DNA of 64,000 nucleotides from Polyangiaceae bacterium. GTDB lineage: Bacteria > Myxococcota_A > Polyangia > Polyangiales > Polyangiaceae. The stretch is taken from the NCBI GenBank assembly GCA_041389765.1, contig JAWKRE010000002.1, positions 139,908 through 203,907 of the forward strand. The letters run 5' to 3'. Below the pieces are notes generated by a model. The model did no database searches and was not told where the DNA came from. It saw only the letters and a program-made list of their open reading frames with translations. Both the position numbers and the translations under genes were made by a program. Below, in pieces: positions 9,146 to 11,928 of this stretch (its first letter is position 1; each line of letters starts with the position of its first letter).

Positions 9146-11002
9146 ATGCGGACAAGACGAATTCCCAGCGCGCTGCTCTTGACTGCCCTGGCGGCGGTTG
9201 GTTGCGGTGATGGCAACGAGACGAGCTCCACGGGGGACACGACGACGTCCACTCCGGAGAAGCCGGCTGCGGTGATCGACATCGCCGTCGACGCGAGCCG
9301 CGACGGCAAGGTCGACCCATCGGATCCAGCCGATCAGGACCTTGAGAACGAGTGGACCGTCGACAGCGGCGCTTCCTTCCTCGCCAACATGGATGACGAC
9401 GACGCCGACAAGATCCGCGACGTCGACGACCAGATCATCAACGGCCCCGACGACGAGCTCGACCTCGCGAAGATCGTCGTCTCCCCCTGGGCCGACGCCC
9501 CCGACGGCGCGAACGGCGTGCTCCGCATCGATCCGCTGAGCGCCGAGAACGTCCGCCTCTGGAAGAAGGGCCTCGACGGCGCGTGGATCCTCGCGGGCGG
9601 CAGCGTCGGCCCGTGCAACGCCGACGACCCCACCTGCACCATCACCCCCGACGTCCCCCTCACGATCGACGAGGTCCGCGCGGGCATCACCTTCGGCATC
9701 GAGGCCAAGTTCTTCCGTCGCTCGCTCGCCCCCGAGGCGTGGAGCGGCATCGTGCAGCTCGGCTACCAGGTGCTCGACGCGAACAACGTCGCCTTCACAA
9801 GCGACGACGCGCCCAATGGCATCGACGAGGCCAAGATCCGCGTCGCCCCCTGGATGCTCTTCGGCAACCAGTCTCCGTTCAACCGCGTCTGGTCGAACAA
9901 CGTGATGCCCGCCTTCGTGACCGGCCTCACCCAGCTCTCCAACGACGCCGAGGTCACCTACAAGAAGATCACCAACTGGAACGATCACTGGACGCAGGAC
10001 TACTTCCAGACCGGCTGGACCACGATCCCCGCCGCCGACGGCGCCGTGCAGGGCATGCGCATCGCCAACGCCCGCCCCTGGGGCCGCTGCGACGCCTCCA
10101 CCTGCTGGCCCATCAACTGGCTCAAGAAGGGCTTCCTCTCCCCCGGAAACGGCATCATCGAGATCTACAACAAGCCCAACACCGGCGGCACGTACGACTC
10201 CCACGGCAACCACGATCTCATCCCCCCGTACGAGAACGGCGACGTGAAGTACCCGTACGGTCGCATCATCATCGGCTCCGGCGTCCTCAAGGAGACCAAG
10301 GAGTTCTACACCGCGCAGGAGGTGCAGGGCCCGCCGCTCATCGTGAAGACCTCCTGGCTCCTCGTCGGCCACGTCGACGAGGTCTTCAGCTACGTCCCCG
10401 CCGCCACCCCGCGCGGGTGGAAGCTCCTCGTCGGCTCGCCGCGCCTCGCCCGCGAGATGCTCGAAGCCGCGCAGGACGCCGGCCACGGCGCCGTCACCAT
10501 GTTCGGCGGCAAGAAGTGGTACACGGAGAACGGCTCCCTCATCAACGCCGAGGTCTCGATCGACGATGTCCTCGGCAACGTCGATCTCATGGCCGCGTCG
10601 CAGGAGGCCCAGTCCGAGATTGACCTCCTCATCCCGCTCATGAAGGAGGAGATCGGCCTCACCGATGACGAGATCATCGAGATGCCGTATCTGCTCCAGG
10701 ACGCGTTCGGCCAGAAGGTCGCCTTCAATCCGGGCACCGCGAACCTGCTCGCCGTCCACGATCACGTCGGCATCCCCAAGCCCTGGGGCCCTGTGATCGA
10801 CGGCGTCGACATCTTCGAGCAGGACCTCGACGACCGCCTCGGCACCGCCGCAAACAAGCTCGGTTACGACGGTGAGGGCCTTGACATCCACTTCATCGAC
10901 GACTGGGACTGGTACCACGCCCTCGACGGTGAGGTTCACTGTGGCTCGAACGTCGACGCGGACCCCCCCGCGGACCAGACTTGGTGGAAGGTGCTGAAAT
11001 GA
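9146..11002 (+). CDS. protein-arginine deiminase (vertebrate PAD-type) homologue, lipoprotein
   Basis: The C-terminal half aligns motif-by-motif with animal PAD catalytic domain: YPYGRIIIG, LLVGHVDEVFSYVP, GHGAVTMFGG, VGIPKPWGPVIDG, and the terminal active-site Cys motif DGEVHCGSNV. The N-terminus MRTRRIPSALLLTALAAVGCG is a lipobox. Confidence 0.8.
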   Translation: MRTRRIPSALLLTALAAVGCGDGNETSSTGDTTTSTPEKPAAVIDIAVDASRDGKVDPSDPADQDLENEWTVDSGASFLANMDDDDADKIRDVDDQIINGPDDELDLAKIVVSPWADAPDGANGVLRIDPLSAENVRLWKKGLDGAWILAGGSVGPCNADDPTCTITPDVPLTIDEVRAGITFGIEAKFFRRSLAPEAWSGIVQLGYQVLDANNVAFTSDDAPNGIDEAKIRVAPWMLFGNQSPFNRVWSNNVMPAFVTGLTQLSNDAEVTYKKITNWNDHWTQDYFQTGWTTIPAADGAVQGMRIANARPWGRCDASTCWPINWLKKGFLSPGNGIIEIYNKPNTGGTYDSHGNHDLIPPYENGDVKYPYGRIIIGSGVLKETKEFYTAQEVQGPPLIVKTSWLLVGHVDEVFSYVPAATPRGWKLLVGSPRLAREMLEAAQDAGHGAVTMFGGKKWYTENGSLINAEVSIDDVLGNVDLMAASQEAQSEIDLLIPLMKEEIGLTDDEIIEMPYLLQDAFGQKVAFNPGTANLLAVHDHVGIPKPWGPVIDGVDIFEQDLDDRLGTAANKLGYDGEGLDIHFIDDWDWYHALDGEVHCGSNVDADPPADQTWWKVLK

Positions 11003-11928
11003 TCCGCGCGAGAAACACCCTGCTGGGCCTCCTCCTCGGAGGTGCCTTGTTTGCCACTGCCGGAGCCGCGCACGCCGACGGCCTCGCCCTCTCTGCCGGC
11101 GAGCTCCCCGCCGAGGCGAAAAAGACCCTCACCCGCGACATCGCCGCTCACAAGGCCTCTCACCCCGACGACTTCAAGCCTGTGCGCGACGTGCAGGGCG
11201 TGAAGCCCGAGGTCTACAAGACCTTCCGCAACCCCCAGCCCATCGCGGTCCTCGAGCTCAAGCGCCTCGGCGCCGGCGCCTTGCTCCCCATGCTCGACGC
11301 CCTCGCCCTCGACGCCCCCGCTCTCACCCTCACCGAGAAGGAGAAGACAGCCTATGTCGTCGGCCTCCTCGAAGCCTCAAGCTCCCTGCGCGACAAGCGT
11401 GGAGCCCCCATCTACACAGCCATCTTCGAGGGCAAGACAAAGAACGCCGACATCCTGCGCGCCGCCGCCGAGGCGATGGGCAGGCTCTGCGGCGACGCCG
11501 AGCTCGCCTCCCTGAAGAAGCACACCGCCGCGACAGACGCTCTCCGTCCGCACGCCCTCCGCGGCCTCAGCCAGTGCCGTCGCAAGGAGAGCGCCGAGCA
11601 CCTCGCCACCCTCCTCGCCTCGGCCGACGCCGCGAGCGCTCCCCCCATCGCCGACGCTCTCGGCCTCGCCGCGTCGAGCTGGGCGTGGAAGGCCATGGGC
11701 AAGTCCCAGGCTGCCGCCGCGAAGGACGTTCAGTCCATCGCTGCCAAGGCCCTTGTCGCCTCCTTCGTGAAGCACAAGGACGCTCGCCCCTCCGCCCAGA
11801 AGGCCCTCCTCCTGGTCGCCTCCCCTGACTCCACTGCTCTCCTCCAGGGCGCCCGCCCCGCCGCCGACGCCCCCACCCGCGTCGCGATTGACACTCTCGT
11901 CAAGCTCCTCACCCCCGCCAAGAAGTAA
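10999..11928 (+). CDS. secreted alpha-helical hypothetical protein, translationally coupled to PAD (ATGA overlap)
   Basis: MIRARNTLLGLLLGGALFATAGAAHA is a signal peptide. Ala/Leu-rich 310-aa protein. Confidence 0.6.
   Translation: MIRARNTLLGLLLGGALFATAGAAHADGLALSAGELPAEAKKTLTRDIAAHKASHPDDFKPVRDVQGVKPEVYKTFRNPQPIAVLELKRLGAGALLPMLDALALDAPALTLTEKEKTAYVVGLLEASSSLRDKRGAPIYTAIFEGKTKNADILRAAAEAMGRLCGDAELASLKKHTAATDALRPHALRGLSQCRRKESAEHLATLLASADAASAPPIADALGLAASSWAWKAMGKSQAAAAKDVQSIAAKALVASFVKHKDARPSAQKALLLVASPDSTALLQGARPAADAPTRVAIDTLVKLLTPAKK

Follow-up and report, generated by a model that had tools for sequence, protein, structure and literature searches.

A predicted lipoprotein of the protein-arginine deiminase family and its translationally coupled HEAT-like partner in Myxococcota

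Protein-arginine deiminases (PADs) are of medical importance in rheumatoid arthritis, NETosis, and cancer. The enzyme of Porphyromonas gingivalis (PPAD) is Ca-independent and is secreted via the type IX secretion system (T9SS). The subject of this article is a PAD gene, together with the gene coupled to it, found in a 64,000-nt stretch of DNA from a Polyangiaceae bacterium. This whole stretch, with a G+C content of ~68%, is termed the window; its positions serve as coordinates throughout, and features lie on the + strand unless stated. PADs have been sorted into three-domain PADIs, from animals and late cyanobacteria, which possess a PAD_N domain and calcium sites 2 and 4, and two-domain PADIs, from fungi, actinobacteria, and proteobacteria, which carry a triple-His linker and an insert between the ligands of calcium sites 3 to 5 (Ca3-5) (PMC8826395). 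The same work lists PADs in 69 proteobacterial and 136 actinobacterial species, includes Myxococcus xanthus DK1622 in its PADI tree, and describes the cyanoPADI of Cyanothece sp. PCC 8801 as active and Ca-dependent (PMC8826395). A second survey counted 837 bacterial PADs of the Pfam family PF03068, in genomic contexts termed “highly diverse” (bioRxiv 10.1101/2020.07.16.207027). The citrulassin PAD reported there (Harris et al. 2020) belongs to PF03068, acts on peptide-bound arginine, and is encoded away from its substrate. Membership of the window protein in the PAD family is already known, such proteins being annotated at NCBI and reported in bacteria, including myxobacteria. What appears to be undescribed is the lipoprotein form across Myxococcota, the conserved HEAT partner, and the mosaic character of the clade to which the window PAD belongs.

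By profile match and residue alignment, the window protein is a genuine bacterial PF03068 PAD, a relative of the human citrullinating enzymes. On balance, it is probably a Ca2+-dependent extracytoplasmic peptidyl-arginine deiminase with a cognate HEAT binding subunit, the two forming a co-translated module across Myxococcota. The PAD gene displays the following features:

9146..11002, + strand: coding sequence of the predicted PAD-family lipoprotein, 618 aa and stop (PF03068, PDB sequence matches, AlphaFold2 model)
9146..9205, + strand: putative lipoprotein signal peptide with the lipobox A-V-G-C, Cys20 (codon 9203-9205) being predicted as lipidated (pattern and inspection)
9206..9265, + strand: disordered tether rich in Ser/Thr/Gly/Pro, connecting the lipid anchor to the folded part of the protein (low predicted local distance difference test score, pLDDT; low complexity)
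9266..9823, + strand: PAD_M-like immunoglobulin (Ig) domain, residues ~41-226, with the Ca3/Ca4/Ca5 acidic cluster (phmmer/MAFFT alignment to PAD4)
9824..10990, + strand: PAD catalytic domain, of the α/β-propeller kind, residues 227-615 (Pfam match, PAD4 residue map)

The open reading frame (ORF) of PAD spans 9116-11002 (+), and the ATG compatible with a signal peptide is found at 9146; the protein begins MRTRRIPSALLLTALAAVGC. The PF03068 profile matches it with 251.6 bits (cutoff 25) and an E-value of 1.8e-74, over profile positions 5-395 of 395. The agmatine deiminase, PPAD (PF04371), and arginine deiminase families yield no match at E <= 0.1 in Pfam and NCBIfam, and NCBIfam returns nothing beyond the Pfam result. 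An earlier reading made from the DNA letters (the sequence-only reading) had assigned the protein to the family of the animal enzymes and not to the Porphyromonas type, and these searches agree with it, the best profile match being PAD and not agmatine or arginine deiminase. Its statement that such bacterial homologs are rare and mostly cyanobacterial does not hold: a GTDB scan with one genome per species returns at least 572 PAD relatives, and the published surveys list proteobacterial and actinobacterial species (PMC8826395). Against PDB sequences, phmmer returns 27 matches, all of them mammalian PADs (PAD3, E 4e-50; PAD4, E 3e-48). Residues 41-616 of the window PAD align to residues 112-661 of PAD4, which correspond to PAD_M and PAD_C, and the pairwise identity to human PAD4 is 30%. 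An AlphaFold2 model built from 23 homologs reaches a pLDDT of 86.9, with disorder (pLDDT < 50) confined to residues 1-36. When compared by Foldseek to human PAD4 (5n0z/2dw5), a superposition that the sequence-only reading had proposed, the model gives an E-value of 1e-45 and template-modelling (TM) scores of 0.74-0.76 over ~600 aligned columns, and its top 50 matches are mammalian PADs. A 100% identical 618-aa protein at NCBI (P0001) is annotated [quoted passage not shown] (MAG, metagenome-assembled genome) and is located on contig JAWKRI010000102.1 of assembly GCA_041389705.1.

Residues were mapped to PAD4 through a HMMER alignment to chain 3apn_A (offset 3), cross-checked by MAFFT, and their conservation was followed in an alignment of 23 PAD homologs with 47-79% identity to the window PAD (alignment A1). 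Residues D350, H471, D473, and C645 of PAD4 correspond to D285, H409, D411, and C599 of the window PAD, and W347 to W282; all five are invariant in A1. The catalytic set is complete, and the active-site Cys motif GEVHCGSNV recognized in the sequence-only reading is confirmed at residues 595-603, with Cys599 encoded by the TGT codon at 10940-10942. The GEVHC and GHxDE motifs are found in most of the 80 best PAD loci of the GTDB scan, which are those compared here. In the Ig-like domain, where calcium-binding residues had been suggested for checking, the Ca3-5 acidic cluster is intact: PAD4 residues N153, D155, D157, D165, D168, D176, and D179 correspond to N81, D83, D85, D92, D95, D103, and D106, as HMMER and MAFFT agree. 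All seven ligands except D95 are invariant in A1, D95 itself reaching a conservation of at least 90%. PAD_M also harbors a conserved Cys157/Cys164 pair (A1) that fits a disulfide in an exported protein, and PF08527 (PAD_M) is recorded for a subset of the PAD homologs. R314 corresponds to one of the substrate-backbone residues R372/R374, the two alignments disagreeing on which.

Regarding domain composition, no Pfam match to PAD_N is found; the PAD4 alignment starts at about residue 112, and just the signal peptide and the ~20-residue tether precede PAD_M. Since PAD_N and the Ca2 ligands are absent and a Gly occupies the position of PAD4 D388, the window PAD is, by the sequence criteria of PMC8826395, a two-domain PAD (PAD_M + PAD_C), not one of the three-domain animal/cyanobacterial type. 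Like other two-domain PADs (PMC8826395), it has PAD_M and PAD_C, the catalytic and Ca3/Ca1-type positions, and neither PAD_N nor Ca2. Its PAD_M/PAD_C linker reads RVAPWMLFGN, of the RVAPWIM type known from three-domain PADIs, and no insert separates the Ca3-5 ligands, whereas the two-domain PADs of the actinobacterial, fungal, and M. xanthus types possess an RxAPV..HH(H) motif and a Cys-bracketed insert. The window clade also differs from the other two-domain PADs by its own DSHGNHD motif, by Q288, and by the HEAT partner, which is absent from Streptomyces loci. With the animal and cyanobacterial PADs, the window PAD shares the family, the fold, the catalytic tetrad, the GEVHCG(S/T)N motif, RVAPW, the Ca3-5 ligands, and the lack of an insert; it differs from them by the absence of PAD_N and Ca2, the Gly at the D388 position, the lipoprotein signal, and an identity of ~30%. 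Judged on these sequence traits, the window clade is a mosaic, two-domain and without Ca2, yet with the RVAPW linker and no insert. The term “animal-type” used in the sequence-only reading is borne out for the linker and for the lack of the actinobacterial/fungal insert, and fails for PAD_N, which is absent, and for the Ca2 ligands, which are lost.

A neighbour-joining tree (36 sequences, 523 columns, Kimura distances, 200 bootstraps), provisional given the divergence of the data and drawing on reference PAD sequences from the supplement of PMC8826395, recovers the window clade at 99%. Its deepest split, with 100% support, sets the window clade, along with two further groups of myxobacteria and the sequences of animals, cyanobacteria, Lysobacter, and Thalassospira, apart from the M. 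xanthus-type PADs, actinobacteria, and fungi. With an RVAPV..HH linker and the insert, the myxobacterial PADs of the M. xanthus type look like those of actinobacteria. The window clade thereby groups at 100% on the side of the animal and cyanobacterial PADs, but its position as their sister clade obtains 20% bootstrap support only. A tblastn search of plasmids for cyanobacterial PADs, with the window PAD and a PAD4 fragment as queries, returned only Streptomyces, Embleya, and one Bacillus record. The latter (NZ_CP007513.1, plasmid of Bacillus bombysepticus str. Wang) harbors at 539713-540643 an unannotated PAD catalytic-domain fragment in two pieces. With 42% identity to human PAD4, this fragment is much closer to the animal enzyme than the other plasmid matches; pseudogene formation, horizontal transfer, or contamination may explain its presence.

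Compared with the citrulassin PAD, to which it is ~30% identical, the window type stands out by its neighbourhood: the survey of the former describes no conserved neighbour (bioRxiv 10.1101/2020.07.16.207027), whereas the latter keeps one partner across the phylum. The likeness to PPAD (PF04371) is physiological, in that both would perform exported or cell-surface peptide citrullination. PPAD and the window PAD fall into unrelated Pfam families of one superfamily; PPAD has no HEAT partner, whereas the window PAD is predicted to be lipoprotein-anchored and is accompanied by the HEAT protein.

The N-terminus of the window PAD comprises an MRTRR n-region, the IPSALLLTALAAV hydrophobic stretch, and GC20 as the end of the lipobox. 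Lipobox and signal-peptide calls were made by regular expression and inspection, not with a trained predictor. The lipobox Cys is at least 90% conserved in A1, in which the low-complexity tether varies in length. Among 120 listed protein homologs, 104 match the strict lipobox pattern, 13 more do so by inspection, and 3 are N-terminally truncated, so that all ~117 full-length protein matches carry a lipobox; the residue at position +2 after its Cys is mostly Gly. At the loci, 75 ORFs are complete, and all but one of them (74), including some with as little as 30% identity, have a hydrophobic stretch followed by [GAS]C upstream of PAD_M. The lipobox that the sequence-only reading had pointed out is therefore not a peculiarity of the window gene, and it predicts that PAD is exported, lipidated, and facing the periplasm or the cell surface.

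Export itself is not special to the window gene, as signal peptides are likewise found at the start of PADs from Streptomyces, Embleya, and fungi. Four Streptomyces/Embleya plasmid PADs (L081-L084) carry Sec/Tat-like signals upstream of PAD_M. In the supplementary alignment of PMC8826395 (file 9), the PADs of Streptomyces and of fungi (Madurella, Stachybotrys) show signal-peptide-like N-termini, some of them Tat-like (RRRRRR). The three-domain PADs of cyanobacteria and animals start straight at PAD_N. To judge from these N-termini, most two-domain PADs may be exported, and neither PMC8826395 nor bioRxiv 10.1101/2020.07.16.207027 mentions export of two-domain PADs. As annotated, the PADs of M. 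xanthus DK1622 and Chondromyces apiculatus DSM 436 start with “MVDLRADVNRNG”, without a signal peptide, and carry FVDHVDE and G(D/Q)VHCATQ variants of the motifs. Because related MAG loci (e.g., L033) have a lipobox, these annotated starts may sit too far downstream.

The second gene of the pair overlaps the end of the PAD gene, with the following features:

10986..10991, + strand: GGAAGG, a Shine-Dalgarno-like sequence ahead of the partner gene, located within the 3' end of the PAD coding sequence and ending 7 nt before the partner ATG
10999..11002, + strand: ATGA start/stop overlap (partner ATG 10999-11001, PAD stop TGA 11000-11002)
10999..11928, + strand: coding sequence of the predicted secreted HEAT-like repeat partner, 309 aa and stop
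10999..11076, + strand: putative signal peptidase I signal peptide of the partner, residues 1-26, with predicted cleavage at AHA/DG (A-x-A then DG motif)
11227..11229, + strand: codon of Arg77, the partner's best-conserved polar residue (locus homologs and representatives)

The sequence before the partner start reads ...GGTGGAAGGTGCTGAA then ATG. With this overlap, the sequence-only reading proves correct in each of its sequence-level statements, and chance falls far short of explaining the agreement. The coupling to a secreted helical protein, which the sequence-only reading had noted, is read directly from the overlap, and its partner is conserved: by tblastn, a partner homolog lies beside PAD in 72 of the 80 loci. 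It is immediately downstream on the same strand in 67 of them, ~2.3 kb downstream in one, and upstream in four. These 80 loci belong to Myxococcota or to unclassified “delta/proteobacterial” MAGs, except for one MAG labelled Enterobacteriaceae, and include Labilithrix luteola, Polyangium fumosum, Archangium MAGs, and Myxococcus MAGs. The same PAD-then-partner order with a 4-nt overlap is observed in Polyangium aurulentum and in two metagenome contigs. The partner occurs with PADs from either side of the family's deepest split, and both deep myxobacterial PAD lineages are, as far as their N-termini predict, lipoproteins with HEAT partners. Genomes with two PADs have two partners, as exemplified by loci 11 kb apart on JALHOS010000008.1. 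No partner was found at the Streptomyces and Embleya PAD loci. Carriers available in culture are P. aurulentum, P. fumosum, L. luteola, and Minicystis rosea, the PAD alone having been seen in the last.

Beyond this pair, the neighbourhood is variable. All-against-all clustering of the flanking ORFs of the 80 loci reveals no other ORF common to more than 8 of them. A wider operon was considered and rejected: the window neighbours tested, namely a Leu/Phe/Val dehydrogenase, a 222-aa lipoprotein, an IgGFc-binding-domain protein, the duplicated 512-aa genes, the kinase-FGE gene, and a radical SAM gene, do not recur in the 80 loci, except for a generic kinase domain (8 loci) and radical SAM (1 locus). 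A scan of 8800-12200 for promoters and terminators returned no promoter-like site, and terminator-like matches at the background rate. An apparent partner-PAD fusion of 801 aa from a metagenome (P0281) was likewise rejected as Rosetta-stone evidence. It is a merged call of adjacent genes, since PAD's own lipoprotein signal lies in the middle of the protein. It shows the reverse order, partner then PAD, which is also that of loci L061, L064, and L078. One PAD subclade (L005, L009, L010, L014, L015, L016, L018, and L022) shares extra neighbours, a ~1,000-1,275-aa gene directly upstream of PAD (e.g., L009 2490-5801) and a ~400-aa gene downstream of the partner, neither of which is found in the window.

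The partner signal peptide reads MIRARNTLLGLLLGGALFATAGAAHA followed by DG, and the A-x-A/DG motif recurs among its homologs. In its model (pLDDT 91.3), the partner is all-helical, with 17 helices forming an α-solenoid of paired antiparallel helices, which suggests a HEAT-like solenoid of the protein-binding scaffold type. The window partner itself obtains a sub-threshold chance match only in Pfam, with none at E <= 0.1, nothing in NCBIfam, and nothing among PDB sequences at E <= 1. HEAT_2 (PF13646) is matched by 20 of 26 aligned partner homologs (best E 5.7e-10), the window partner staying below threshold. A profile search of 1.84 billion representatives assembles the family into 349 clusters at E <= 1e-30, and among the 150 best-scoring representatives listed, nearly all are ~310 aa long. 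The closest matches are PBS-lyase-type HEAT-like proteins (HEAT_2; E. coli YibA, CpcE/F bilin lyases, synthetic alphaRep binders), from which the partner differs by its signal peptide and by its own motifs, R77, SSWAW (226-230), and C193. Deoxyhypusine hydroxylase has conserved His/Glu metal motifs, whereas the partner has none. Residue conservation was followed in 63 locus-derived homologs and, separately, in 142 sequences, i.e., the window partner and 141 representatives (50% clustering). Position 77 is Arg in 63/63 and 135/142 of these, respectively, and Q, H, or K in 6 representatives; W228 and W230 of the SSWAW motif come next, as does C193. Arg77 sits in a non-helical loop (74-83) between helices, modelled at pLDDT > 90.

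Taken together, these observations are best accounted for by an anchored enzyme with its own subunit. PAD would be exported via Sec, lipidated on Cys20, and held to the membrane by its flexible tether of ~20 residues. It would bind Ca2+ at least at the conserved Ca3-5 cluster. Cys599 would attack the guanidinium of a peptide-bound arginine, D285 and D411 keeping this arginine in place and H409 serving as general base, to give citrulline and ammonia. Because of the ATGA overlap, PAD and partner would be made together, and the one-to-one pairing of paralogs together with coupled translation favours a cognate physical complex. The secreted HEAT-like protein would most likely bind its cognate PAD as a non-catalytic subunit, regulating or targeting it. 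In this scheme we infer the deimination activity, the Ca2+ dependence, the localisation, the PAD-partner interaction, and the role of the partner.

Several points weigh against this scheme, the first of which concern calcium. The Ca2 site is gone (E351 to Y286, D369 to A309, S370 to R310), the equivalent of its fourth residue, N373, being G313 or C315 depending on the alignment. The Ca1 site is remodelled (E353 to Q288, E411 to D357) with Q349 retained as Q284, and a clade-specific DSHGNHD motif (residues 351-357) brings two His into the Ca1 region. Gly334 replaces D388 of PAD4, a calcium-switch/Ca4 ligand (D389 in PADI2); at least 90% of the clade has Asp at this position (A1), the window PAD having Gly. 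Because Ca2 is absent, Ca1 is remodelled, and Gly334 stands at the D388 position, Ca2+ regulation may differ or be lost in the window PAD. Furthermore, the compartment would be an oxidising one, and the catalytic thiol would have to remain reduced there. Signal peptides and lipoboxes were called from pattern and inspection only, and it is solely genomic association that speaks for a PAD-partner interaction. In eight of the 80 loci tblastn found no partner, some of these loci being cut by contig ends, and a literature search found no paper pairing Myxococcus with protein-arginine deiminase.

Of the other explanations, the one that survives best, itself unlikely, takes the partner as a dedicated substrate or a pseudo-substrate inhibitor, Arg77 entering the active site to be citrullinated or to block it until Ca2+ or release from the cell displaces it. 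Arg77 tops the polar conservation of the partner and lies in a non-helical segment; the one-to-one pairing, in which each paralogous PAD has its own partner, resembles that of enzyme-inhibitor or enzyme-substrate pairs, and coupled translation implies that PAD and partner are matched in amount. However, Arg77 is swapped for Q, H, or K in 6 representatives, and its loop is modelled with such confidence that the Arg may be part of a buried structural salt bridge. Its conservation makes Arg77 a lead only for this idea, as the residue could equally be structural. The idea may be carried further, with a similarly low probability, to a self-contained extracytoplasmic citrullination switch: the partner would insert loop Arg77 into the active site of PAD, where this residue would serve as dedicated substrate or as a pseudo-substrate gate, and Ca2+-dependent citrullination or release would alter the complex at the cell surface.

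It is rather doubtful that PAD scavenges nitrogen from free arginine, agmatine, or short Arg-ending peptides of prey or the environment, a PPAD-like physiology without PPAD ancestry. Its predicted extracytoplasmic location and its predatory or saprophytic Myxococcota hosts would suit such a function. Yet PAD is the sole profile match, with no agmatine, arginine, or PPAD-type deiminase family at E <= 0.1; PAD_M is kept, and the substrate-backbone position R372/R374 still holds an Arg; and the one bacterial PF03068 enzyme with a shown substrate acts on a peptide, citrulassin (bioRxiv 10.1101/2020.07.16.207027).

A catalytically dead, PADI6-like PAD, the pair being purely structural in the envelope, is highly improbable. 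PADI6, which is among the PDB matches, shows that the fold can be used non-enzymatically, and the loss of Ca2 and the alteration of Ca1 could be read along the same line. Conservation such as that of the four catalytic residues and W282, invariant over 23 homologs at 47-79% identity, with GEVHC/GHxDE in most of the 80 loci, is however unexpected for a dead enzyme. Finally, a role of PAD as a tailoring enzyme of ribosomally synthesised and post-translationally modified peptides, with the radical SAM/SPASM protein encoded ~6 kb upstream, at 1641-2882 (+), as maturase, draws on the actinobacterial PF03068 PADs that citrullinate a lasso peptide (bioRxiv 10.1101/2020.07.16.207027), but can be largely dismissed for want of synteny, as a radical SAM homolog is near PAD in only 1 of 80 loci. 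A PhdYeFM/PIN toxin-antitoxin pair and further genes, oriented both ways, lie between the two, an exported lipoprotein would not meet a cytoplasmic precursor, and the citrulassin PAD itself is not encoded in the cluster.

Other genes of the window may be mentioned briefly. Two tandem ~500-aa genes, at 12011-13549 (-) and 13542-15359 (-), are 91% identical over 492 aa and have no Pfam match. JAWKRI010000102.1 shows one copy (504 aa), then an FHA-domain gene; the duplication may be collapsed there, or the assemblies may differ. The radical SAM/SPASM gene, whose product is a possible peptide maturase, is not syntenic with PADs elsewhere, and the PhdYeFM/PIN pair is called just downstream of it on JAWKRI010000102.1. 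The gene at 5095-6999 (-) encodes an exported protein of 634 aa that is Cys-rich in its N-terminal region and matches IgGFc_binding strongly (PF17517, E 4.9e-62). The gene at 16509-19082 (+) joins a Ser/Thr protein kinase to an FGE-sulfatase (formylglycine-generating-enzyme-like) domain at the C-terminus; a weak PEGA match lies between them.

For an anchored PAD with a cognate HEAT subunit, the HEAT protein is a concrete candidate for a binding partner or substrate, and the predicted location offers a defined compartment in which to seek bacterial citrullination. Because it combines animal/cyanobacterial traits (the linker and the lack of an insert) with two-domain traits, the window clade would be a useful intermediate for reconstructing the evolution of PADs and of their calcium regulation. 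As export appears to be common to most PADs of bacteria and fungi, it may further be hypothesized that the high Ca2+ requirement of animal PADs was inherited from extracytoplasmic ancestors.

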